64,000 nucleotides of DNA from a virus (Duplodnaviria > Heunggongvirae > Uroviricota > Caudoviricetes), in IMG/VR virus record IMGVR_UViG_3300032304_001269, positions 10,067 through 74,066 of that record; one strand, given 5' to 3'. The first letter of the stretch is position 1, and each line of letters opens with the position of its first letter. The position numbers and the translations under genes are program-made. The notes beneath the pieces are model-generated. The model made no database searches and had not been told where the DNA came from. It saw nothing but the letters and a program-made list of their open reading frames with translations. Shown here in pieces: positions 3,014-56,292 of this stretch.

Positions 3014-5218
3014 ATGGCTATTAGAAAAATTGCAACTGGACAGATGTCCTACTCTGCTGCCACTTATGTGGGTACAGCTGGCACTATCTTTTACGATGAA
3101 CTAACTGGCCTGTTAAAGCTCAGCGATGGCGTTACTCCTGGCGGCGGCAATATAGGTATTAGTGCTAACATAATCACAGCTGAAAGCATTGTTCCAGATG
3201 TAGATAATGTTCACGGGCTCGGCACAGCGTTGCTACGATGGAGCCATATACACATTGGTGATGAAGGCATTTACTTTGACGGTGATGACTCAACCATCAG
3301 CCCTCCACAGACCGTGCCATATCGTCCGCAATCATTGGTAGGAAGTCTAATACCACAAGATGACAATGATGTTGATCTTGGTTCTCCAACCAAAAGGTTT
3401 GCCAACCTGTATCTTGGCTACCAAGGTTTATTTCTAGCAGACACAATCACAGACGCCAACATCAATATTGTGGCTACTAACGGCACACTGTTTTTAAATG
3501 GTGCTCAAAATCTACGATTAGGTGATCTAGTTATTGAGAACACCACCTTAAAAAGTTTTACTCCTGACCTAGACGTCAGCGTTGGTGAAACAGGCGACAC
3601 TGGCTTCTTCTACGTCAAACGTAAGGCGCAGTTTGACAATACCTCATTCAGCAGCATAGAAGGCATGGTGAGTATCAATGCTTCAGGTGGTGCCGAACCC
3701 GCTACTATATTCCCAGATACCCTATTGCAATTAACCGGCAGACCCAACAAGAACAGTCGTGTCACACAACGATCATACGGTAGCACAGGGGTAGTAGGTG
3801 GAGACAACAGTTATGCTGTATGGGCCAGTTATGCAGCCCGTGGCTCAGTGGCAAGCCCAGCCGCACTCAAAGCCAACGACATACTGATGCGACTCAGTGC
3901 CAACGGCTATGGAGCAACTTCATTTGGATCAGGTGGCGGTGCTAGAATAGAAGTGGTTGCCAAAGAAAACTTCACTGACTCAGCCAAAGGCACCAAGATC
4001 AACTTCTGGACTGTGCCTACAGGACAGGTTGCCAGCCAAACAGTAGCGTCAATTGACAGCACTGGTGTGGTCACCACTGGTCTAAAGTTCAGCGGTGACG
4101 ACACAGTTCAAACCACAGCAGGTATTCCTTTAACACAAAAAGGTGCAACTTCTGGTGTGGCCACTCTAGATGCGGGCGGTAAACTCACTGCCGCACAGAT
4201 TCCTGACAGCCTATCGGGTGCAGTGGTGTTTAAGGGTGTGTGGAACGCTAACACTAACACGCCTACACTCAGCGACTCACTACCTGTAGGACTACAACCT
4301 GGTTGGGAATACATTGTAGAAGTAGGCGGAACAAGAGATATCGGCGATGGCAGTAAAGTATTTGTCGCAGGCGACTTTGTTATATACGATGGCACACATT
4401 GGAAACAGGTTCCAAGCGGCAACTTGTTCACCAGCCTCACAGGTGGCGGTGGCATCACCGTTAGTCAATCAACTGGTGCTATCACATTAGGTAGTACAGC
4501 CACTCCGTTGTCCAATGTCAGCACTATTGTTAGTCGTGACAGTTCAGGCAACTTTGCCGCTAATATTATCACAGCCAACCTAACTGGTAATGTCACTGGC
4601 ACAGTGTCAGGCAATGCTGGCACAGTCACAAATGGTGTTTATACCACAGACACTGCCACAGTTACAAATACTATGTTGGCTGGCTCAATTGCCAATAACA
4701 AGTTATCTAACAGCACCGTCACAGTAAATGGAACTGCAATAGCATTAGGTGCTTCAGGTACAGTCACAGCGGCAGCAGGTACACTGACTGGAAATACTCT
4801 GGCATCAGGAGTAACAGCAAGTAGCCTAACATCAGTAGGCACATTGGGCAGTCTAGCAGTTACTAACGGCATAACAGCAACTAACTATACTGGACTGGTC
4901 ACTCACTCTATTAGAAATGCAGGAGCAGTGGGTGGAACTACATTAACACTCAATGTGACCACAGACGATATTGTTAGATGCACATTTACAACTGATTTTA
5001 CTGTGGCATTTAGTAACATTGTTGCTGGTAGAGTAATTACACTCATAGCTACCAATACCTCTGCTGGTGATAGTGACGTTATTACTTCCGGCGTAGCCGC
5101 GTTGAATACCACTAGTGTTGGAACGTTTACAGTTACACAACAGACCACAGCAGTAATCACCTACTACAGTCTTGACGGTGACACCGCCAACATCTATGCT
5201 TCGGCAGTTTACGCTTGA
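3014..5218 (+). CDS. tail fibre-like protein (Gly/Thr/Ser/Val-rich, repetitive)
   Basis: 734 aa. Low-complexity TGxVTG and NxT repeats typical of phage fibres. The antisense ORFs in this interval are composition artefacts. Confidence 0.55.
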   Translation: MAIRKIATGQMSYSAATYVGTAGTIFYDELTGLLKLSDGVTPGGGNIGISANIITAESIVPDVDNVHGLGTALLRWSHIHIGDEGIYFDGDDSTISPPQTVPYRPQSLVGSLIPQDDNDVDLGSPTKRFANLYLGYQGLFLADTITDANINIVATNGTLFLNGAQNLRLGDLVIENTTLKSFTPDLDVSVGETGDTGFFYVKRKAQFDNTSFSSIEGMVSINASGGAEPATIFPDTLLQLTGRPNKNSRVTQRSYGSTGVVGGDNSYAVWASYAARGSVASPAALKANDILMRLSANGYGATSFGSGGGARIEVVAKENFTDSAKGTKINFWTVPTGQVASQTVASIDSTGVVTTGLKFSGDDTVQTTAGIPLTQKGATSGVATLDAGGKLTAAQIPDSLSGAVVFKGVWNANTNTPTLSDSLPVGLQPGWEYIVEVGGTRDIGDGSKVFVAGDFVIYDGTHWKQVPSGNLFTSLTGGGGITVSQSTGAITLGSTATPLSNVSTIVSRDSSGNFAANIITANLTGNVTGTVSGNAGTVTNGVYTTDTATVTNTMLAGSIANNKLSNSTVTVNGTAIALGASGTVTAAAGTLTGNTLASGVTASSLTSVGTLGSLAVTNGITATNYTGLVTHSIRNAGAVGGTTLTLNVTTDDIVRCTFTTDFTVAFSNIVAGRVITLIATNTSAGDSDVITSGVAALNTTSVGTFTVTQQTTAVITYYSLDGDTANIYASAVYA

Positions 5219-5496
5219 TAGGGTTTCTAATGTATAGAAAATATATCAACATCGTAGAAGCAGCCAATAAAGGCTGTCCGATAGCAACCTATGACATAGA
5301 CGTTAATCTAAAGAATCGTCAAAAAGCCATAGATGAATATCACTACGGTCCAGCCAATCCCGAAGCACCAGAATCATATTGGAAGGATGCAGCTGATCGT
5401 TGGAGCAATCGTAGCGAGCGATGCCTGGACTACTTTATACAGTCTTGGCGGTATGGATTCCAGCGGCGACACTTTTACAGCTACCCTACAGGATAA
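5215..5496 (+). CDS. hypothetical protein (start uncertain)
   Basis: The track ORF starts at TTG; the first ATG is at 5230. An alternative overlapping frame at 5333..5584 cannot be excluded. Confidence 0.3.
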   Translation: MIGFLMYRKYINIVEAANKGCPIATYDIDVNLKNRQKAIDEYHYGPANPEAPESYWKDAADRWSNRSERCLDYFIQSWRYGFQRRHFYSYPTG

Positions 5497-5594
5497 AGGA
5501 GCAGGTACAATCTATCGTGTTACCTTTATGCGTAGTGATTCTGGCGGAGATGGCTTCAATATCATAGCAGAGAGATTATTATAAGGAAACAACA

Positions 5595-5744
5595 ATGGAA
5601 GACAATGACACCTCATATCAAAGATTAAAACCCAAATGTTCATGCTGGTGCACCGGACACTGCGGATCTAGCTGTATGACTGACGGCTGCGATTGCAATG
5701 AATGCCAGTGTGATGATTGTTTAGATAAAAAGGAAAACAAATGA
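5595..5744 (+). CDS. small Cys-rich peptide (49 aa, 11 Cys), a candidate RiPP precursor or metallothionein-like peptide
   Basis: Not in the ORF track because it is under 60 aa. An AAGGAAAC RBS lies 5 nt upstream of the ATG. Sequence: MEDNDTSYQRLKPKCSCWCTGHCGSSCMTDGCDCNECQCDDCLDKKENK. Its stop overlaps the next ATG (ATGA). Confidence 0.45.
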   Translation: MEDNDTSYQRLKPKCSCWCTGHCGSSCMTDGCDCNECQCDDCLDKKENK

Positions 5745-6376
5745 GCTTTTTAGTAGCAAACCTTCCCCCCATACACGGTTTTGTTCGTAGAGAATTTCTC
5801 TACGATTTTAAAAGTGGTCATGATGAGTACGAGCCCTGCATATGGGTTTCAATCAAGAGCCTACGCAGTCAAGCATTTAGAATAGAATCCTACTTGCCAC
5901 GCTACGGTGCTCTTTATGACAAGCTGCCATTGCATGCCTATGTGAGCAGAGACACTGACCTAGAACCAGAACAGTTCCTACCCTTGGACACACTACAGAT
6001 CTGGGATTGTTTTAGCTATGATATGGCAGTGATACAGAAAGCATTTTTACGCAATCTCAGCTGTAAATTCTATGCCAAGAATCGAGAACTGTATCAGGGC
6101 AACTATCTATTCACTGTAGACAATGCCGCACCCGACATGAACATCATAGATACCACCTATTCAGAATGGCCCGAAGATCACAAGAGCTTTAACTTCATTG
6201 AACTAGACAACGGACAGTATGCTGCACAGCCCAACAATCGCTGCTTGTTCTTTGATGCTGCCAGCAATCCCAAGGAAATGCTGTTTCCAGATTTCAAAGT
6301 CTGCACTAAAAAATACGTGGTAGAACAGAACCCTAAGTGGCGTCTAGGTGACAGCGACACTGTCACCTATGAGTGA
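5741..6376 (+). CDS. hypothetical protein, translationally coupled to the Cys-rich peptide
   Basis: 211 aa with no recognisable motif. ATGA overlap with the upstream peptide ORF. Confidence 0.5.
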   Translation: MSFLVANLPPIHGFVRREFLYDFKSGHDEYEPCIWVSIKSLRSQAFRIESYLPRYGALYDKLPLHAYVSRDTDLEPEQFLPLDTLQIWDCFSYDMAVIQKAFLRNLSCKFYAKNRELYQGNYLFTVDNAAPDMNIIDTTYSEWPEDHKSFNFIELDNGQYAAQPNNRCLFFDAASNPKEMLFPDFKVCTKKYVVEQNPKWRLGDSDTVTYE

Positions 6377-6379
6377 TTT

Positions 6380-7426
6380 ATGCATTGTCCAAGACTAGAC
6401 CACTTTGCAAAAATTTTACCCAACGATAATATAAAAAATCAAACTGTGGTAATGAATTGTTGTGTTATGACTAATGCACCTCTATTCGACAGTTACGACG
6501 AAATGATGAGCAGTCAATGGTTATCAACCACTAAAAAATTATTGAAATATGGTCGATGGCCTAACGAATGTGTTAGATGTAAAGAACAAGAAGAGCTAGG
6601 CTTAAAAAGTGATAGATTGCAATGGATCGATTATCATAAAGATGCTCTCGTAGACCACGGTTCTGATTATCTAACGGTATCCATGATGGTAGATAATATT
6701 TGTAACACAGCCTGCCAATTTTGCGATCCTTATATCAGCTCAAAAATTGCTTCACTTCAAAAATTTCCATTAAAAATTCGACAGATTGGTCCTTACGAAG
6801 AAAAACTACCTGTACACAGAATCACTCAAATAGACCTAGAAGGAGGAGAACCTTCTAACAGTAAAAATGTTAAACAACTGTTAACCAATTTACCGCAACG
6901 AGTAAACACTGTAAAAATTTACACAAATGCAAGATCTTTTTTATACGAACTTGTACCTGTTGCAGAAAGAGGTATTAAAGTTCAAATCAGCATATCGTTA
7001 GACGGAGTCGGGCCAGTACAGGAATATGTTAGATGGCCCACCCAATGGAGTGAATTTTGTGAAACTATTGGAAAATACAAAGACCTGCAGGTTAGATTCC
7101 CGGATACAGTTGTTTTGTCTTTTAAAACCACAATCTGTGCTTTAAATCTCTTTGATCTTCCAAATATTATTGATTTTGCTGAAAAACAAAATATTAGTCA
7201 TTCTGTGTCTCAACTCGCATACCCCCGGGTATTACAAATTTCTGCAACAAATAGTTATACAGCAACTGCCAAGCAACGATTGATAAAAAGTCAGTATGAA
7301 TTGTGCCAACAATTCGCTCTGGGAACAGCCACTCAAAAAAAAGAAAATCAGCAAGAAATTGACAAATTCATCGATCAACAAGACACGCTACGTAAAATTT
7401 CAATCAAAGATTATATCGTTAACTGA
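6380..7426 (+). CDS. radical SAM enzyme
   Basis: 348 aa. CNTACQFC is a CxxxCxxC [4Fe-4S]/SAM cluster motif, and a downstream IDLEGGEPS (GGE) motif is also present. No C-terminal Cys-rich SPASM-like region. Confidence 0.65.
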   Translation: MHCPRLDHFAKILPNDNIKNQTVVMNCCVMTNAPLFDSYDEMMSSQWLSTTKKLLKYGRWPNECVRCKEQEELGLKSDRLQWIDYHKDALVDHGSDYLTVSMMVDNICNTACQFCDPYISSKIASLQKFPLKIRQIGPYEEKLPVHRITQIDLEGGEPSNSKNVKQLLTNLPQRVNTVKIYTNARSFLYELVPVAERGIKVQISISLDGVGPVQEYVRWPTQWSEFCETIGKYKDLQVRFPDTVVLSFKTTICALNLFDLPNIIDFAEKQNISHSVSQLAYPRVLQISATNSYTATAKQRLIKSQYELCQQFALGTATQKKENQQEIDKFIDQQDTLRKISIKDYIVN

Positions 7427-7462
7427 TGTTTTAATTAATAAATATGATTATTAGGAACCAAC

Positions 7463-7909
7463 ATGAGAAAACTACTACTATTATTATTGGTGCTGCCGTT
7501 GGTAGCATTTGCACAAAAAACACCAAAAGGCGTTACTTATGATGCTCAGATACTTAGAGTAACGGATGGCGACACAGTTGTTATTGCCGCACCCTTTCTA
7601 CCTGCACCCCTTAAACCAGAACTTGCTGTTAGAGTCTACGGAGTCGATACTCCGGAAAAAGGACACAGAGCACAATGTCCCAGTGAAGCACAGAGAGGCG
7701 AAGCTGCTTCCGCATTCACTAAAAATGCAATTGCTACAGCAGCATCTACAGGCGGCAAGTTTCAAGCTACTCTGTATGGGTGGGACAAGTTTGGCGGTCG
7801 AGTATTGGGTGATATATTAGTCAACGGACAGAGTCTTAGAGCTGCTCTGATTGCCAATGGATTTGCTCGCGAGTATTACGGAGAAGCCAAACAGAGTTGG
7901 TGCCAGTAA
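7463..7909 (+). CDS. secreted staphylococcal-nuclease (SNase/thermonuclease)-like nuclease
   Basis: Signal peptide MRKLLLLLLVLPLVAFA. SNase motifs present: TDGDTVV, RVYGVDTPEK and DKFGGRVLGD. Confidence 0.75.
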   Translation: MRKLLLLLLVLPLVAFAQKTPKGVTYDAQILRVTDGDTVVIAAPFLPAPLKPELAVRVYGVDTPEKGHRAQCPSEAQRGEAASAFTKNAIATAASTGGKFQATLYGWDKFGGRVLGDILVNGQSLRAALIANGFAREYYGEAKQSWCQ

Positions 7910-7919
7910 TAAATACAAG

Positions 7920-8792
7920 ATGCGAATAGAATCTTACCAATTGTTTTCACAGTTACTTGAAGGCTATCTCAACGAAGCCAGCACCAGTCTCAATTTGATC
8001 CTAGACAATCCTGGTGGCAAGCAGGTGGTCAAACATCTTCACACAGACATGGGTCTTGCACATGATCAGGATTATCGACAGGTAGAAAAGATATCGTGGA
8101 GTGACCTCAAAGACACTAGAAGAGGTGCTTGGGTTATAATCAAAGGTACCACGGGCACAGGAGCTATCCGTGCTACAGCCAGCGGTACTTACCAAGCCAC
8201 TGCCAGCTCAGGCGGTGACGTTGAAAATGCCACAGACAGTCGCGGTGGCAACATCATAGACTTCTTGAAATCTAAAATAGGCAAACTACAGAAATTCTAT
8301 GTAGGAAACAATACTTCAACCGTGCGTGACAAACAAAAGAAACGTGCAGATCAACAAGCAGGCACCGGCACCTCGATCGTCAGCGTAGACAGCCTAACTA
8401 AAAAATTCAAGCCACTGTGGGTCAAAGCTATCACTGCTGCTATCGCAGACGTCAAAGGACATATCGCTAATCAGATCAAGAACGATGCCTTTGATAAAGC
8501 TGCCAAAAAATTAGAACATGTGAAACGACTGCAATCTGCTATTGAATCGTTGGAATCAGATTCCGATACACCCGGATCAGTCAAAGCTGCTATCAATCTT
8601 GCTGTATTAATGGCAGCTAGTCATCACTATCCAGAACAGACTGGCGCTATCAGTCGAGGTGGCTATAATAGCGGGTATAATGCACAACGTTCAGAAGGTG
8701 GTAGTCAACTGCTGAAAGATATCGCAAGCGGCGATCAGAAAAAACTCAGCACGGTGCTGACATTCTTCAAAAGGAGTTTGATCTCAGGATGA
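7920..8792 (+). CDS. hypothetical protein
   Basis: First in-frame ATG of track ORF 7851..8792; the track start is TTG and overlaps the nuclease gene. Confidence 0.5.
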   Translation: MRIESYQLFSQLLEGYLNEASTSLNLILDNPGGKQVVKHLHTDMGLAHDQDYRQVEKISWSDLKDTRRGAWVIIKGTTGTGAIRATASGTYQATASSGGDVENATDSRGGNIIDFLKSKIGKLQKFYVGNNTSTVRDKQKKRADQQAGTGTSIVSVDSLTKKFKPLWVKAITAAIADVKGHIANQIKNDAFDKAAKKLEHVKRLQSAIESLESDSDTPGSVKAAINLAVLMAASHHYPEQTGAISRGGYNSGYNAQRSEGGSQLLKDIASGDQKKLSTVLTFFKRSLISG

Positions 8793-10026: not shown

Positions 10027-10674
10027 ATGAAACCTACAATCGCACTATTTTTGCATGATCCAAGATGCTCAGTACAATGTGGTAATGGTATAATAAAGGC
10101 ACTGGGTCAACACTATAACTTCAAAATCTTTGGATTAAACAAAGTCGAAGACGTATTTTTTGATGACGTGGACATAGTGGCTTTTCCTGGGGGTGAAGGT
10201 GACAGCGAATCCTGGCATAGATTGCTTAAGGTCAACAAACCACAGATATTAAATTTTATTAGCCGCGGCGGTCATTATCTTGGAATTTGCATGGGGGCAT
10301 ACTGGGCAGGAAGTTATTACTTTGATATCTTAGATGAAGTGGATGCTGTTCAATATATTGCCCAACCAAATACTGACACACGTCGCCCACATGCTAAGGC
10401 AATTGATGTGGTATGGAATGGACATCCTGAAAGGATGTTTTTTTATGATGGCTGCGCCTTAGTTGGTAATAACAATAAATTTGAAACCATAGCTACCTAT
10501 GCCAATGGCGATGCAATGGCGATTATACAAAATAGAATAGGACTCATAGGATGCCACCCAGAAAGTGAAAAGTTTTGGTATGACGCTTATTATAGTTGGA
10601 TGAAACCTCATTATCATAACGGACTTCATCATAAACTTTTACTTGACTTTGTAGACAAATTATTTTATAAATAA
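10027..10674 (+). CDS. class I glutamine-amidotransferase-like (BPL_N-like) protein
   Basis: 215 aa. A GICMGAY nucleophile-elbow-like motif and a FPGGEGD motif are present. Confidence 0.45.
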
Positions 10675-10693
10675 ATTACAGGAGGACACAACC

Positions 10694-10852
10694 ATGAAAC
10701 AGAAAAGGCTATTGGCTAAACTGTACAGGGCTTGCGTCGACCATGATACAGAAACGGTTTCCGAACTGCGTAAAAAAGAGTTCGCTAAGATACTGAAACG
10801 CAAGGCCGAAGGCAAACCATTTACAACAAAATGGGTGCTAGTACAGGTTTAA
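10694..10852 (+). CDS. small basic hypothetical protein (52 aa)
   Basis: Strong AGGAGGA RBS 6 nt upstream. Not in the track because it is under 60 aa. Confidence 0.3.
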
Positions 10853-10953
10853 CACACACTAGGGCTACTTCGGTAGCTCTTTCAATTTGCTCAAAATAAT
10901 CCGATCATCGGGAAAATAAACATAAATATCTACCTAAGGCAATTGAGGCACAT

Positions 10954-12630
10954 ATGGATAGATATAAAGATTTAGAACTATTAGTAAAACAATTCAGGCG
11001 AGAATTACCCAGTGACGCAAAATACACTACAAGACTCGAAGAAGAATTAGAATTAATTAGAGATCAAAATTTTTCAAAACACTTCTTACGTGTTAGAGAA
11101 ATATTAGATCTCACAACAGACATACCACATATCACGAGAGGTTCAGCAGGATCTAGTTTGGTGTGCTGGCTTATGGGAATCAGTGATCTTGATCCTGTGG
11201 CAGAAAACATTCCCATTGCACGTTTTATGAATCCCAAACGTGACGACTTACCTGACATTGATTTAGATTTCCCGCACTGGCAACAGGCCACAGTGATGAA
11301 TCGCATATTCAAACGCTGGCCTGGACAAAGTGCTAGAGTTTCTAATTATGTCATGTACAAAGAAAAAAGCGCCAAGAGAGAAGCTGCCAAGAGACTAGGC
11401 GCTAAAGGTACACTCAAGCGTGGATTTGAATTCAGCCAGGTGTTACCGCAAGAAGAGATAGCGGAGGCCGAACGAGTTACTGCCAAGCTCATGGGCAAGA
11501 AACGCTGTATTTCAAAACACTGTGGTGGTATATTGATCTTTGATCGTGCTGTGCCTAAAAGCTTGATCAACGGTGACAATCAGATCCTATTAGACAAGTA
11601 TGAAACTGAAGATCTTGAACACTTCAAGATAGACATCTTGGCCAATCGTGGACTTAGCCAACTGTGGGAAATAGATCAGCGCCCACTAACAGACTATCCG
11701 GAACTGGATGACGCAACCAGTGAACTGCTAGCTAGAGGTGATGTGTTGGGAGTTACCCAAGGCGAATCGCCTGCTATGAAACGCTTGTTTAGAGCACTAA
11801 AAGTCAAGAGCAAAAGCGACTGTACTCTAGCCACAGCACTGATTCGTCCGGTGGCCACACAGGGTCGACGAAAGGCCAGCGCCTTTCAAGACTGGAGTGC
11901 AGACACTATACAACAGGACACAGTGGTGTTTGAGGATGATGCCATTACCATGATTGCTGACATACTAGAATGTGACATGTACACCGCCGACATGTGGCGC
12001 AGAGCGTTTGCCAAACGTAATGAAGAAAAAATCTACGAATTCATGCAGTTGATTGGAGACCATCCCAAGCGTGATCGTGTGTTGGCTTCTTTGAGAGAAC
12101 TCAGTCATTTTGGTCTTTGTCGTGCTCATGCTACTAACTTGGGTAGATTGATATGGGCGTTGGCCTATCACAAGGCACATAATCCTGAGAAGTTCTGGAA
12201 GGCCTGTCTAAAACACTGTGAAGGCAGTTACAGCAAATGGGTATACTGGCAAGAAGCCAAACTGGCTGGTGCTGTTCCAGCGCCACTGGAAGGCGGTGAG
12301 TGTGCTGAGTTGGCCCGCACCGGTCGATGGAGTAGCGGTAGTTTTATTCCGGCATGTACTGAGATTCGACGTCCTGGCGAAGTTGAATTTCTTGGACTAG
12401 TGGCAAACTATCGTGTATTCAAAAGCGGTCCTAAAGACTATATAACCTTTGCCACACTAGGCACTGGTAATGGTCGTTATCTAGATGTTATGTTGCCACA
12501 TGCTATTAGTTTCGCAGATCAACCAATCTTATGGGGCAAGGGTCGATTAGACTATACAAACAGCTCAGAATGTGTTAAAGTATATAAGAGTAAGAAATTA
12601 CATCTCAAAGACATAGAGCATATCACATAA
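10954..12630 (+). CDS. DnaE-family (Pol III alpha-like) polymerase catalytic core, truncated (no PHP domain)
   Basis: ITRGSAGSSLVCWLMGISDLDP ... ARFMNPKRDDLPDIDLDF closely parallels the DnaE palm motif GRGSAAGSLV...FERFLNPERVSMPDFDVDF. Only 558 aa. Confidence 0.7.
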   Translation: MDRYKDLELLVKQFRRELPSDAKYTTRLEEELELIRDQNFSKHFLRVREILDLTTDIPHITRGSAGSSLVCWLMGISDLDPVAENIPIARFMNPKRDDLPDIDLDFPHWQQATVMNRIFKRWPGQSARVSNYVMYKEKSAKREAAKRLGAKGTLKRGFEFSQVLPQEEIAEAERVTAKLMGKKRCISKHCGGILIFDRAVPKSLINGDNQILLDKYETEDLEHFKIDILANRGLSQLWEIDQRPLTDYPELDDATSELLARGDVLGVTQGESPAMKRLFRALKVKSKSDCTLATALIRPVATQGRRKASAFQDWSADTIQQDTVVFEDDAITMIADILECDMYTADMWRRAFAKRNEEKIYEFMQLIGDHPKRDRVLASLRELSHFGLCRAHATNLGRLIWALAYHKAHNPEKFWKACLKHCEGSYSKWVYWQEAKLAGAVPAPLEGGECAELARTGRWSSGSFIPACTEIRRPGEVEFLGLVANYRVFKSGPKDYITFATLGTGNGRYLDVMLPHAISFADQPILWGKGRLDYTNSSECVKVYKSKKLHLKDIEHIT

Positions 12631-33432: not shown

Positions 33433-34386
33433 ATGCCAACCCCACAATCAACTAATATTGGGCCAAGTGGCGGAATAGGACCTTATCCAAATCTACCTCA
33501 TCAACACTCTCCAGGTAGTTTAAATCGGCAGGAACCTCTATATAATCCGTTTAATGTTTTTGCCAACGGTGTGGAAATTGCACTCTACAATGCTGCTACG
33601 GTTCCAGGAACGTTCTCAGCTACCTCAGTACCTCGAGTCACAGTTACGCAGGCTGTACAGAATGTAGAAGGAGACGATGACAACACTGCGGGCAAGGTAG
33701 AAGCAGATAGATTTTTAGCGGAAGGTAGAATTACTGCCGCAAAACATAAAGAACTTACAACTACTCCTACACCTAAGGGACCGGGAACACCACCATCTAC
33801 TCCAGTTCCGGGACGTGATGTTGCAGCAGTTACAGGTGATCTTACCTATGCAACAAAATTAACTCCTAACGGATTTACACTTGGACAAGCGATAAAAAAT
33901 GTTACATATCCTCGAACTATTCCTCAGTTAGCCGATAATGTAAAGGGATTACCTGTTCAAAATATTGTAAACAACCTAGCGGCGTTAGCATTAAATGTTC
34001 TCGAGCCTATCAAAGCAAAATATCCCAGCATGTTGATCACCAATTCATATCGTCAAGGGAAGGGCCAGGCCCAGCACGGTACAGGGCAAGCAGCTGACCT
34101 TCAGTTTAGGGGTGTGTCAGCTCACAATTATTATGACATAGCTGTTTGGATTGAAAAGAATATTCCATACGACCAACTACTGTTGGAATATCTAGTGAGA
34201 GATACTGTTTGGATACATATCAGTTATGCAATACCTGGTTTACCGTATGGAGGACAATCTGTTAGAGTAGGCAAACCAATTAACAGATTAGCCACACTCA
34301 ACGGCGCAGCAGGCGGCAAGTTTACAGTTAATTTGCATTCTGATATCATAGTGGCCTCAGTACCTAACCGAGTAGTGGCAGCATAA
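33433..34386 (+). CDS. peptidase M15-like (VanY/D-Ala-D-Ala carboxypeptidase fold) cell-wall hydrolase
   Basis: QAQHGTGQAADLQF fits the M15 HxxGxAxD zinc motif. The N-terminal part is Pro/Gly-rich. Confidence 0.5.
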   Translation: MPTPQSTNIGPSGGIGPYPNLPHQHSPGSLNRQEPLYNPFNVFANGVEIALYNAATVPGTFSATSVPRVTVTQAVQNVEGDDDNTAGKVEADRFLAEGRITAAKHKELTTTPTPKGPGTPPSTPVPGRDVAAVTGDLTYATKLTPNGFTLGQAIKNVTYPRTIPQLADNVKGLPVQNIVNNLAALALNVLEPIKAKYPSMLITNSYRQGKGQAQHGTGQAADLQFRGVSAHNYYDIAVWIEKNIPYDQLLLEYLVRDTVWIHISYAIPGLPYGGQSVRVGKPINRLATLNGAAGGKFTVNLHSDIIVASVPNRVVAA

Positions 34387-34394
34387 CACAAAAC

Positions 34395-35027
34395 ATGTGT
34401 TTTAATTCCGTGTCAACCACAAACAATTATCACAGATTAAATTTATCAAAATCTCCGTTGCTAAATCATGAATTGGCATTGTGCATAGACAACGAATATA
34501 ATTTCTTCGAAGATACTGTAAATTTTTTGACACCAGAACTATTGGATCAATTTAACAGTATTGGGTTGGTTCCTACATTAGCTGTTATTTTTAGTCTAAA
34601 CTACTCGTCTAGATCAGATCAAGAAGCTAAAAAATTCATACACAAAGATCTGACTTGGTATAACGACAAATGGAATACTGTGCCATTCGCTGTTAACTGG
34701 GAATTGAATTCAGATATACACAGTGATATTTTTTGGTACGACGTCTCTGAATGTGAACAACAGTTGCCTCCCGCATATCCAACATATCCGTGGAATCACC
34801 TAAGCGGTATATTTTATCAAGGACCTGCAACAGTAATTGAACATGTAGAGGTTGATTCTAAATATACACGTTCTCCGATATTGTTTAATACCAGCACACC
34901 TCATGCCGTGGGTTTTTCTACATCGGCATCTCATAGATGCGGGCTTAGTGTAAGATTCAGCATTGATCAAATATCAACCTGGAACGATGCTGTGTATAGA
35001 TTTCAAGAATTCATTTGTAAAGATTGA
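34395..35027 (+). CDS. hypothetical protein
   Basis: 210 aa. Confidence 0.4.
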   Translation: MCFNSVSTTNNYHRLNLSKSPLLNHELALCIDNEYNFFEDTVNFLTPELLDQFNSIGLVPTLAVIFSLNYSSRSDQEAKKFIHKDLTWYNDKWNTVPFAVNWELNSDIHSDIFWYDVSECEQQLPPAYPTYPWNHLSGIFYQGPATVIEHVEVDSKYTRSPILFNTSTPHAVGFSTSASHRCGLSVRFSIDQISTWNDAVYRFQEFICKD

Positions 35028-35090
35028 GATTATAATTGGTTTTAATTTAGATTATTAATTAAAAATAATAATTATTAACAAAGGTGTAAC

Positions 35091-35501
35091 ATGAAAAAAT
35101 TATTTTGGAACATATTAGGATTTATCAGTCTAGGCTTGGCCTACATAGGATTAATCACTCCAGGTATACCATACTCACCGTTTATTGTATTCTCCGCTTA
35201 TTGCTTCTCCAAAGGTTCAGAACGCATGCACCGTTGGATCTACAATCATCCAATCTTCGGCCCGTTTCTTACAAATTGGAATGAAAAGAGAGTATTTCCA
35301 CAGAAAATGCGCTATTTGATGTTGACAATGATGTCAATAAGCCTTATAATGATGTATGTGAGTGGAGTAAAGCCTGTGGGCATATTAAGCACAGCAGGAT
35401 TTATGTTGATTGTGGCAATTTGGGCTTGGAGATTTCCTAATACCCCAGAAGAACACGATCGCCGCAAAGCAGCTGGTGAAAAGATAGGTTGGCTTAAATA
35501 A
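35091..35501 (+). CDS. DUF454/YbaN-family inner-membrane protein
   Basis: N-terminal ILGFISLGLAYIGLITPGIPYSPFIV matches the YbaN family. Confidence 0.6.
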   Translation: MKKLFWNILGFISLGLAYIGLITPGIPYSPFIVFSAYCFSKGSERMHRWIYNHPIFGPFLTNWNEKRVFPQKMRYLMLTMMSISLIMMYVSGVKPVGILSTAGFMLIVAIWAWRFPNTPEEHDRRKAAGEKIGWLK

Positions 35502-54185: not shown

Positions 54186-54944
54186 ATGTTATATATCTAT
54201 CAAGGATTTGTGCTGAAACTCTGTGGCATACTCTTTGGTTGGTTCTTGACCTGTCTTAGTATATCAGCTGAGGCAGGCGACCACTCACAGGCAATCACAG
54301 CAAAATCTTGGATAGTTGCTGATGCCCAAGGTACGGTGTTAACCAGTGACAATGTCAACCAACAAAGAAGCGTGGCCAGTATTACTAAGCTGCTTACTGT
54401 TATGGTGGTTCTTGATGCCAGACAAGATCTTGGGAAAAAGATTCAATCTCATACCAGGCAACAGTTAATCGATCTTACCTTAATACGTTCTAATAATTCT
54501 GCGGCAGAAAAACTCTGTCAAAATTATCCAGGTGGAAGGTCACGTTGTATTCGTGCAATGAATGACAAAGCTATTGAATTAGGCATGTATCAATCTAGAT
54601 TTGTGGATCCTAGCGGTCTCAATCGAGCCAATGTCAGTACAGCGTCGGATCTTGTTAAATTGGTACGTGCTGCTGAAACATATCCAAAAATAGTGACTGC
54701 CAGCAATACAAGCACATTGAAAATCAAACACAAAAAGAAGTATAGAATTTATAACAATACTAATCCTATTATAGCCAAAGGATATAAATTTCAAGTTAGT
54801 AAAACTGGATGGATCAATGCATCTGGAGGATGCATTGTAATGATGCTGGACACTGCCTTGGGAAAACGTATTGTGATTCTGCTAGGCAGTAAAAATACAC
54901 GCACCCGTATTCACGAAGCTGAATTAGTTGCTAATCTTAAATAA
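54186..54944 (+). CDS. D-alanyl-D-alanine carboxypeptidase/endopeptidase (peptidase S11, PBP5/7-like)
   Basis: SITK (SxxK) active site, a later SNN (SxN) motif and a KTG triad. Signal peptide present. Start taken at ATG 54186 within track ORF 54123..54944. Confidence 0.65.
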   Translation: MLYIYQGFVLKLCGILFGWFLTCLSISAEAGDHSQAITAKSWIVADAQGTVLTSDNVNQQRSVASITKLLTVMVVLDARQDLGKKIQSHTRQQLIDLTLIRSNNSAAEKLCQNYPGGRSRCIRAMNDKAIELGMYQSRFVDPSGLNRANVSTASDLVKLVRAAETYPKIVTASNTSTLKIKHKKKYRIYNNTNPIIAKGYKFQVSKTGWINASGGCIVMMLDTALGKRIVILLGSKNTRTRIHEAELVANLK

Positions 54945-55148
54945 CTACCCCAACACGATATAATTCTCTACTACTAATATTCTTAGGCTGTGCAGTTTAA
55001 ATATTAGTATGGCAAATTCATTTTTAGATGATCTACGAGAACAATTAGAACAGGTAAAGAATCCTGTGCTGTTCTTTGTAATCATGTGTGGAATATTTTT
55101 TGTCATCGGCACATTGGCCTTAACTGGTATATATTTTTATACCCGTCA

Positions 55149-55553
55149 TTAATTTTTTCTAGGATGGTCGATCAACCATTTCTCCAACTGTGCTAAATTT
55201 AAATCCCCGTCAAAGTGTTTCTTGAATGCCCGATAGAATCTTATCTTCTCTGGATCACCGTTGAATCGAGCCATAATCTGATCTTCTTCTAATTGTGCTC
55301 GTTGAAACTCTGGTAATAGTTCTTCATAGCTGTAATATCCAAACAGTATAAAACAAGCTAATACCGACGTTATGAAAATAAAGGCATTGATGTATTCATG
55401 GAATATGATTAGTATTGCAGGAACTAAAAATATACCAAGAATAGCACCTAATACTATTAGCAGTGTTTTAGTTACTGGATTCACTTGCCTGTTTCTCTGC
55501 TTTTTGTTGCTGTAGGAAAAGTTCGTATTCTTGCAACTTCTTTTGATGTTCAA
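55149..55553 (-). CDS. hypothetical membrane protein (possibly a C-terminal extension or frameshifted part of the upstream paralog)
   Basis: Overlaps the 3' end of 55468..56292 by 86 nt in another frame. Contains two TM segments. Confidence 0.3.
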   Translation of the reverse strand: MNIKRSCKNTNFSYSNKKQRNRQVNPVTKTLLIVLGAILGIFLVPAILIIFHEYINAFIFITSVLACFILFGYYSYEELLPEFQRAQLEEDQIMARFNGDPEKIRFYRAFKKHFDGDLNLAQLEKWLIDHPRKN

Positions 55554-56292
55554 ACCATTCTTGTTTTCTTACTTGTGCTAGTGTGTCTCTATATCTAGTG
55601 TCAGTTACACTACCCCAACGTTTTTGTGCATCGTGGGCAATCCACATAAACATGCCCATCATAACAAATACTATTATTACTGCGGCAATACCTACTGAAA
55701 TTTCAAATTGATAATGCGCCATTCGTTGTTTACGTAATCTGGCTTTTTCTATTTCTTTAACCATAAGAACTTTTTGCTGTGCTCCAAGTTCTTTGGTCAT
55801 AGATTCTACTTCTGTGTACAGCGCACCTAGTTCAGGCGGGCTTTGATATATCATTAGTTCGCGCAGTTCCTTGCCCATTTGTTCCAGTTGTTTTTGCATC
55901 AGCACACGTTTTAAGGCACGTTTGGCTAGGCTGTCACCACCTGAATATACTTCATTTTTTGATCGTTTTTCTTCGTCTTCAAGAACTGCTAGACATTTGA
56001 AATAGTTGTCATAGTATTGACCTAGATAGTCACCAATTTCTGTATAGATATTAGTGGCTTCTTCACTGCGTTTGTTTAGTTCTTTTACCCGGGTTTTTTC
56101 TTCATTGAGTTGTTTGACAGCAGCATCAGGTACTGGTTTGCCGTCATACTTTTTATGGAATTGATCATCAAGATCTTTGAGTACACCTTTTACATCGCCC
56201 GCCGCAGATTTGATGTCCTTGTAAAGTTGACACCCTTTCTTTACGGCCTGAACTGCGCCGTTGGCCAAGGCAAAGAGGGTAAACGGATCCAT
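55468..56292 (-). CDS. hypothetical protein, paralog A (C-terminal TM)
   Basis: The N-terminus MDPFTLFALANGAVQAVKKGCQLYKDIKSAAGDVKGVLKDLDDQFH is nearly identical to that of the neighbouring gene. Confidence 0.5.
   Translation of the reverse strand: MDPFTLFALANGAVQAVKKGCQLYKDIKSAAGDVKGVLKDLDDQFHKKYDGKPVPDAAVKQLNEEKTRVKELNKRSEEATNIYTEIGDYLGQYYDNYFKCLAVLEDEEKRSKNEVYSGGDSLAKRALKRVLMQKQLEQMGKELRELMIYQSPPELGALYTEVESMTKELGAQQKVLMVKEIEKARLRKQRMAHYQFEISVGIAAVIIVFVMMGMFMWIAHDAQKRWGSVTDTRYRDTLAQVRKQEWFEHQKKLQEYELFLQQQKAEKQASESSN

Follow-up and report, generated by a model that had tools for sequence, protein, structure and literature searches.

Positions 5595-7909 of a 64-kb stretch of DNA from a virus of the class Caudoviricetes (IMG/VR record IMGVR_UViG_3300032304_001269, positions 10,067 to 74,066; hereafter the window) carry genes for a Cys-rich peptide, a 211-amino-acid (aa) protein termed p211, a radical S-adenosylmethionine (rSAM) enzyme and an SNase-type nuclease. 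An earlier note had read these four genes as a candidate cassette for a ribosomally made and post-translationally modified peptide (RiPP). Our analysis indicates that the region is probably a stretch of a hypervariable mosaic accessory island rather than one functional cassette, because each of the four genes has a phyletic distribution independent of the others. The phage that contains the island is aquatic and uncultured and has genes in common with cyanomyoviruses. We propose that the peptide, a putative zinc-thiolate mini-protein, and the SNase are encoded by backbone genes of this phage group and that the rSAM gene landed recently as a low-GC, gene-sized insertion between p211 and the SNase gene; p211 itself is a widespread cyanophage gene of the kind annotated as 'PurM/ferredoxin'. 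The features concerned are as follows.

5595-5744, plus strand: Cys10His1 mini-protein, 49 aa, with AGGA 9 nucleotides (nt) upstream of its ATG
5741-6376, plus strand: phrog_3704 protein p211, 211 aa (PHROG match, E 2e-83)
6380-7426, plus strand: rSAM enzyme, 348 aa, with CNTACQFC and GGEP motifs
6380-6664, plus strand: N-terminal twitch-like domain of the rSAM enzyme (Cys3, Cys27, Cys64 and Cys67)
6701-6724, plus strand: CxxxCxxC rSAM cluster motif (C108, C112 and C115), read from the sequence and invariant in the homologue alignment
7463-7909, plus strand: SNase-type nuclease, 148 aa (Pfam PF00565), with the hydrophobic, signal-like N-terminus MRKLLLLLLVLPLVAFAQ

Several structural details given in the earlier note are confirmed. 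The 49-aa open reading frame (ORF) has the ribosome-binding site described for it, the TGA of the peptide gene and the ATG of p211 share an ATGA overlap, and the 348-aa ORF contains the reported cluster motif together with GGE, here within GGEP. The nuclease likewise belongs to the SNase family as proposed, matching PF00565 at 38.3 bits (cut-off 21) and the phrog_452 endonuclease at E 1.3e-19. Two counts need correction: the peptide has 10 Cys residues rather than 11, the eleventh conserved ligand-type residue being His22, and the spacer between p211 and the rSAM gene is 3 nt rather than 4. Moreover, p211 had been called an unknown protein and is in fact a full-length member of phrog_3704. The four genes are co-directional and tightly packed, like nearly everything else in this genome.

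A RiPP cassette was to be judged, in the earlier note, by the joint occurrence of peptide and rSAM homologues in related phages, and this joint occurrence proves to be rare. A pattern scan locates the peptide gene at 57 IMG/VR loci (related loci carry L numbers and protein representatives P numbers). An SNase gene lies downstream of the peptide gene at 34 of these, as it also does at L149, L150 and L151. The rSAM gene is absent from 33 of the 34 and accompanies the peptide at one. When the search starts from the enzyme, a hidden Markov model (HMM) of the peptide family finds a member within 6 kb at only four of 85 rSAM-derived loci (L064, L065, L066 and L106 of the series L064-L148); L129 holds a family-like peptide ORF below the HMM threshold. 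The two genes are thus distributed independently of each other.

The arrangement that recurs in related phages is a backbone of the peptide gene, a gene for a protein of ~210 aa and the SNase gene, in that order. The gap between the peptide and SNase genes measures 640-725 nt in 22 of the 33 rSAM-free loci, which leaves room for one ~210-aa gene, and the order is kept at L149, where the peptide is only ~50% identical. The gene after the peptide encodes either p211 or an unrelated protein of 208-213 aa, and the SNase gene may be preceded by optional cargo in the form of a 203-aa gene, a 106-aa gene or an rSAM gene. Since p211 separates the peptide from the rSAM enzyme in the window and unrelated 208-aa and 133-aa proteins do so in L004, the protein in this position is interchangeable. 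A remotely homologous partner shared by rSAM genes at their upstream side was also considered and rejected, as hhalign probabilities did not exceed 4.3% among p211, the 208-aa c2 protein, the 210-aa c1 protein, the 2-oxoglutarate (2OG)-Fe(II) oxygenase of L144 and ClpP.

The rSAM gene appears to be a recent acquisition of this backbone and is compositionally foreign to it. Its GC content of 35.3% (26.9% at third codon positions, GC3) makes it the lowest-GC kilobase of the 64 kb, within the lowest 0.5%. The window has a GC content of 42 ± 2.7%, and the flanking p211 and SNase genes have values of 44-46% (GC3 31-48%). Two related loci, L051 and L036, preserve what the site looks like when it is empty: the p211 stop codon is followed after ~21 nt by the ATG of the SNase gene, precisely where the rSAM ORF lies in the window, and the ribosome-binding region of their SNase genes matches that of the window. 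The low GC content, coupled with this empty junction at the same site, identifies the rSAM gene as a gene-sized insertion.

The peptide is the product of a real gene that is under strong purifying selection at its 11 Cys/His positions. Among 35 distinct DNA versions, the ratio of nonsynonymous to synonymous polymorphism (pN/pS) is ~0.25, and TGT and TGC are both used at each of the 10 Cys positions while the residue is unchanged. The window peptide has the core motif C-x-C-W-C-x2-H-C-G-x-S-C-M-T-D-x-C-x-C-x2-C-x-C-x2-C, which corresponds to the family consensus C-x-C-x-(C/H)-x2-H-C-G-x2-C-x4-C-x-C-x2-C-x-C-x2-C. Conservation extends beyond the ligand-type residues to W18, G24, S26, M28, T29 and D30, and includes the aromatic residues Y8 and W18; an N-terminal YQRLKPK stretch is invariant among close family members. 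When 1.84 billion cluster representatives were searched with a profile, 28 clusters at 50% identity were recovered, all of which are stand-alone proteins of 50-71 aa.

The peptide founds a previously undescribed phage mini-protein family. It has no sequence match in Pfam, PHROG, NCBIfam or the PDB, no homologue was found among cultured phages, and a literature search for Cys-rich cyanophage proteins returned nothing relevant. Gene callers often miss the peptide ORF, so the family is under-counted in protein databases; for example, the JGI source gene calls skip the 52-aa peptide ORF in L004 (529-687), L005 (311-469) and L006 (78-236). Another locus, L106, has two overlapping frames at 2061-2316, each with a family-like Cys-rich motif (CHRCACKPHCNKKC... 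and CEKCGCEQHCKQSC...), which could be a frameshifted tandem pair.

Sequences were read for 26 divergent representatives, and four of them (P0254, P0260, P0267 and P0271) have His in place of the third Cys. An exchange of Cys for His at an otherwise invariant position suits a metal ligand, with zinc the probable metal, and would be unexpected for a thioether donor or a disulfide partner. Judged from its sequence, the peptide is most likely a small zinc metal-thiolate mini-protein that would fold around several zinc ions, and not an enzyme substrate. Its composition can be compared with that of the cyanobacterial metallothioneins SmtA/BmtA and of zinc-thiolate domains of the CXC/pre-SET Zn3Cys9 type. 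Like these, the peptide is small, consists of ~20% Cys arranged in CxC and CxxC spacings, and has one conserved His for a total of 11 potential ligands. Unlike them, it occurs only on phage contigs and conserves Y8 and W18, and no Pfam model, the metallothionein (SmtA/BmtA) models included, matched the window peptide or nine diverse relatives at E <= 10. The role of the mini-protein may be tied to the ~210-aa gene, to the nuclease or to host recognition.

A mini-protein with eleven conserved Cys/His ligands might also serve as a redox or metal-delivery partner, similar to a rubredoxin, ferredoxin or metallochaperone, for the ~210-aa protein, for the nuclease or for the rSAM enzyme where one is present. 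The overlap of its stop codon with the start of the next gene and the persistence of gene order at L149 would accord with such a partnership. However, shared ancestry is sufficient to explain a conserved order within one phage group, and the two ~210-aa proteins that can fill the partner position are mutually unrelated. Furthermore, the peptide exhibits no ferredoxin or rubredoxin motifs or family matches, and p211 occurs in cultured phages that lack the peptide. We therefore consider this role unlikely, although it fares better than the other alternatives weighed below.

The p211 gene leads a life of its own. Its family comprises no fewer than 1337 clusters in the protein database (the 120 listed as best share 79-92% identity with the query), and tblastn identifies full-length homologues (27-52% identity) in 114 cultured phages, whose hosts are Synechococcus, Prochlorococcus, Pelagibacter and Flavobacterium. 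These phages carry p211 with neither the peptide nor an rSAM partner. In P-TIM40 and P-RSM1, for instance, the p211 homologue is preceded by genes for unrelated proteins without Cys enrichment, and its vicinity contains no rSAM gene. Because p211 is widespread in cyanophages that have neither partner, it is unlikely to be a dedicated RiPP recognition partner. The window copy is a full-length member of the cyanophage 'purM'/phrog_3704 group that differs in adjoining an inserted rSAM gene. Homologues in GenBank are labelled PurM, phosphoribosylaminoimidazole synthetase or ferredoxin, and these names are unsupported because p211 has no Pfam domain: no model matched at E <= 1, PqqD included. An identity as PurM (AIR synthetase) was rejected on the same search, in which the AIRS and AIRS_C domains were absent.

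The rSAM enzyme has an architecture that differs from the one first ascribed to it. The earlier note correctly stated that there is no C-terminal SPASM cluster, and no Cys is conserved in the C-terminal part of the homologue alignment. It overlooked, however, an N-terminal four-Cys, twitch-like domain. Among 37 homologues, no variation occurs at C64 or C67 and conservation reaches at least 90% at C3 and C27, and the domain formed around these residues is presumed to be an auxiliary Fe-S site. The spacing of these four residues presumably resembles the twitch pattern of BtrN.

This architecture, with a Cys-rich twitch/SPASM-like domain at the N-terminus and a CxxxCxxC core after it, is that of N_Twi_rSAM (NF033640), which is also the best family match of the enzyme (135.6 bits, E 2.3e-39, residues 18-338). 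The match runs the full length, and true N_Twi_rSAM members adjoin relatives of the enzyme in viral cassettes. In contrast to those members, the window enzyme scores below the 170-bit cut-off, and it represents a separate, nearly virus-only subfamily related to N_Twi_rSAM. An alignment-based scan identified the subfamily on 350 viral contigs, compared with two hits in a set that holds one genome for each of 185,579 species. Cultured phages yielded no close homologue, giving one weak match in a Ralstonia phage and KVP40-like matches of ~25% identity, and a literature search for the N-terminal twitch/SPASM family or NF033640 found nothing. Two members, P0013 (L004 1751-2863) and P0002, have independent tandem duplications of ~22-30 aa directly after the CxxxCxxC motif (e.g. 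SPYVSSKLASLQPVPLTIRQ repeated).

The AlphaFold2 model of the enzyme (predicted local distance difference test, pLDDT, of 92) has SkfB as its top Foldseek match. SkfB is also the best PDB sequence match (E 8.6e-9), which places the enzyme in the broad SPASM/twitch clade. The TM-scores to the RiPP maturases of this clade are only ~0.4, and the fold does not reveal the substrate class. For the small-molecule enzymes with twitch domains that are among the fold matches (BlsE, SpeY and DesII), only a ~190-residue core aligns, at 13-18% identity, a level that does not discriminate between families; the subfamily shares with them a setting beside SDR (short-chain dehydrogenase/reductase)/epimerase-like proteins, as in sugar pathways.

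Individual enzyme families were compared with the rSAM enzyme and rejected. QueE scores 21.4 bits (TIGR03963; cut-off 260.1), viperin/pVip 20.6 bits (NF038283; cut-off 180) and 27.2 bits with the PADLOC pVip model, which covers the core only; MoaA and anSME are far below their cut-offs. Even the Pfam Radical_SAM model falls marginally short (29.4 versus 29.5). The fallback offered in the earlier note, a metal-binding peptide beside an unrelated enzyme, appears to fit the sequence data best, except that QueE was a poor choice of example.

Most rSAM genes of this subfamily reside in a quite different setting. In 70 of the 85 rSAM-carrying loci, neighbour clustering identifies a cassette composed of the 210-aa c1 protein, the rSAM enzyme, an SDR/epimerase-like protein of ~181 aa and N_Twi_rSAM. 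The genes of these cassettes are translationally packed, leave no room for a precursor peptide, and include one to three true N_Twi_rSAM paralogues, which score 238-239 bits with NF033640 and have Pfam SPASM at the N-terminus (residues 13-72 and 24-89). The cassettes are often bordered by gp32-like genes on one side and RecA/UvsX-like genes on the other, and genes of the methyltransferase and cytidylyltransferase/cupin kinds are near (L073-L143, e.g. L098 5358-8683; also L146 7393-11161). In the window, by comparison, the enzyme lacks both a paralogue and the partners that it commonly has in cassettes, and a single peptide gene is present. Pelagimyophages are reported to carry rSAM cassettes as a variable component of their host-recognition clusters (PMC7029224), and 12 rSAM genes are present in one T4-like environmental genome (PMC5332604).

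The cassette context points to small-molecule or glycan chemistry rather than to a ribosomal peptide, and it suggests that the subfamily modifies a small molecule or a glycan. The solo enzyme of the window would use its N-terminal twitch-type cluster and its SAM cluster on a non-peptide substrate, like its cassette-embedded relatives. A different setting is found on a 466-kb contig resembling that of a jumbo phage (L144, 6758-9017), where genes for ClpP and a 2OG-Fe(II) oxygenase (PF13759) precede the rSAM homologue, with those for ClpX, ClpS, HSP20 and ribosomal protein S21 near.

Several observations weigh against a mosaic island. A family peptide lies within ~1.1 kb of the enzyme in all rSAM-bearing loci of the group that were read as DNA (the window, L003, L004-L006, and L065 and L066), and the contig of P0022, judged by gene calls alone, has the arrangement of the window too. 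The rSAM genes at this site are 51% identical, versus 77-91% for the flanking SNase genes. Finally, an RRE-like fold (RRE, RiPP recognition element) of p211 is excluded by sequence only, as the AlphaFold2 model built from 26 close homologues reaches a pLDDT of 36.6. The proximity of the peptide to every rSAM gene of the group is nevertheless expected if the backbone of peptide and SNase genes encloses the insertion site, although it would also suit a pairing specific to this lineage. The divergence of the rSAM genes relative to the SNase genes suggests repeated acquisition at the same spot.

The pairing in question is one in which the rSAM enzyme was recruited to crosslink the Cys-rich mini-protein, by thioethers similar to those of sactipeptides or ranthipeptides or by another radical modification. 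In addition to the proximity just described, it could draw on L003 (714-2527), where p211, the rSAM gene, the peptide gene (55 aa, 1839-2006) and the SNase gene are consecutive and only 91 nt separate the enzyme from the peptide; this contig ends 75 nt before p211, and a second, upstream copy of the peptide gene is possible. The thioether-forming SkfB is the nearest solved sequence relative of the enzyme, and the invariant YQRLKPK stretch of the peptide is leader-like. We judge this pairing very unlikely. The peptide manages without the enzyme in the 33 rSAM-free loci, and the rSAM family lacks the peptide in ~80 of its 85 loci, in enzyme-only cassettes. The conserved W/G/S/M/T/D core is unlike the variable core typical of RiPP families, and one of its Cys residues is exchangeable for His. 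The P0024 contigs, whose rSAM enzyme is 71% identical, have neither a separate small gene nor free intergenic space near the enzyme, as assessed from gene calls, which often miss the peptide ORF; a 239-aa gene lies upstream of p211 on these contigs (ERZ1426837 and ERZ1426840).

Nor does the enzyme resemble a known maturase closely. It shares with the SPASM/twitch RiPP maturases (SkfB, CteB, SuiB, PapB and the SCIFF maturase) the broad rSAM core clade and a short Cys-rich ORF near by, but its auxiliary domain is N-terminal rather than C-terminal, and the co-occurrence expected of a maturase and its substrate is lacking. RiPP-maturase HMMs give only 22-27 bits against cut-offs of 300-650; the best are SkfB (26.8 bits, cut-off 300) and WgkB (22.3 bits, cut-off 650), and no SCIFF-maturase or CcpM match is listed. 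No RiPP-maturase model reaches its cut-off, nor do QueE and anSME, two families against which the earlier note had advised a search. No PqqD/RRE Pfam match is present in the enzyme or in p211 at E <= 1, which for p211 is a result at the level of sequence. Some RiPP maturases lack an RRE.

With peptide and enzyme so rarely together, the enzyme inserted, p211 widespread and no RRE or maturase match, the RiPP-like cassette proposed for this locus is not upheld. A phage that makes a radical-SAM-modified peptide would be striking. The boldest form of the idea holds that an rSAM enzyme captured beside a Cys10His mini-protein now modifies it, giving a phage-encoded radical-SAM RiPP; a weaker version holds that a new phage-specific zinc-cluster family has the ~210-aa protein and secreted nuclease as its partners in action. 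Either would be a long shot. Given that the adjacency of the genes arises from insertion into a variable island, biochemistry is needed before the RiPP claim is taken any further. What the mosaic island leaves as viral 'dark matter' is an undescribed, conserved Cys10His mini-protein family encoded next to host-recognition genes in abundant aquatic phages, and a nearly virus-only subfamily of rSAM enzymes with N-terminal twitch domains, present on hundreds of viral contigs and usually in multi-rSAM cassettes.

In most related loci, the peptide gene directly follows tail-fibre-like, collagen-like or GLEYA/PA14 host-recognition genes, and tail-fibre assembly factors are usually encoded after the tail-fibre genes in phages of the T4 and lambda types. 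This position might indicate a disulfide-knotted structural peptide or a virion or tail-fibre accessory without bound metal, which we regard as improbable given that a signal peptide is absent and the cytoplasm is a reducing environment, that the invariant His22 and the Cys-to-His swap fit metal ligation, and that distant members are found in non-structural contexts (L058-L063 and L149).

The mosaic island of the window is flanked on one side by such tail-fibre and host-recognition genes and on the other by a conserved block of the SNase gene and genes for proteins of 313 aa and 373 aa. Two features lie on its upstream side.

3014-5218, plus strand: tail-fibre-like protein, 734 aa, with PHROG tail and minor tail protein matches; the end of the host-recognition module before the island
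5215-5584, plus strand: mosaic remnant, recognized when tblastn and ORFs were compared against L004 and L023, in which both genes are intact

The ORF at 5215-5496 encodes the N-terminal part of a 133-aa protein (c7; MYRKYINIVEAANKGCPIA...) that is intact in related phages. Out of frame, this remnant passes into the C-terminal end (~60 aa) of a tail-fibre protein that is collagen-like (ORF 5333-5584, which ends ...GFNIIAERLL). The segment at 5215-5584, immediately 5′ of the peptide gene, looks like a deletion or recombination scar. A promoter and terminator scan of positions 5000-8200 gave nothing above shuffled controls and no plus-strand terminator, a null result that carries no operon information in either direction.

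Downstream, the 313-aa ORF as listed begins with a TTG at 7851 and overlaps the 3′ end of the SNase gene; because of this overlap, its true start is probably later. The block of SNase, 313-aa and 373-aa genes is followed at 10027-12630 by genes for a BPL_N/glutamine-amidotransferase-like protein of 215 aa and a DNA polymerase III alpha-like protein of 558 aa. Elsewhere in the window, ~34100-35400 and ~54550-55800 are also among the lowest-GC kilobases (~35%) and may be further foreign insertions.

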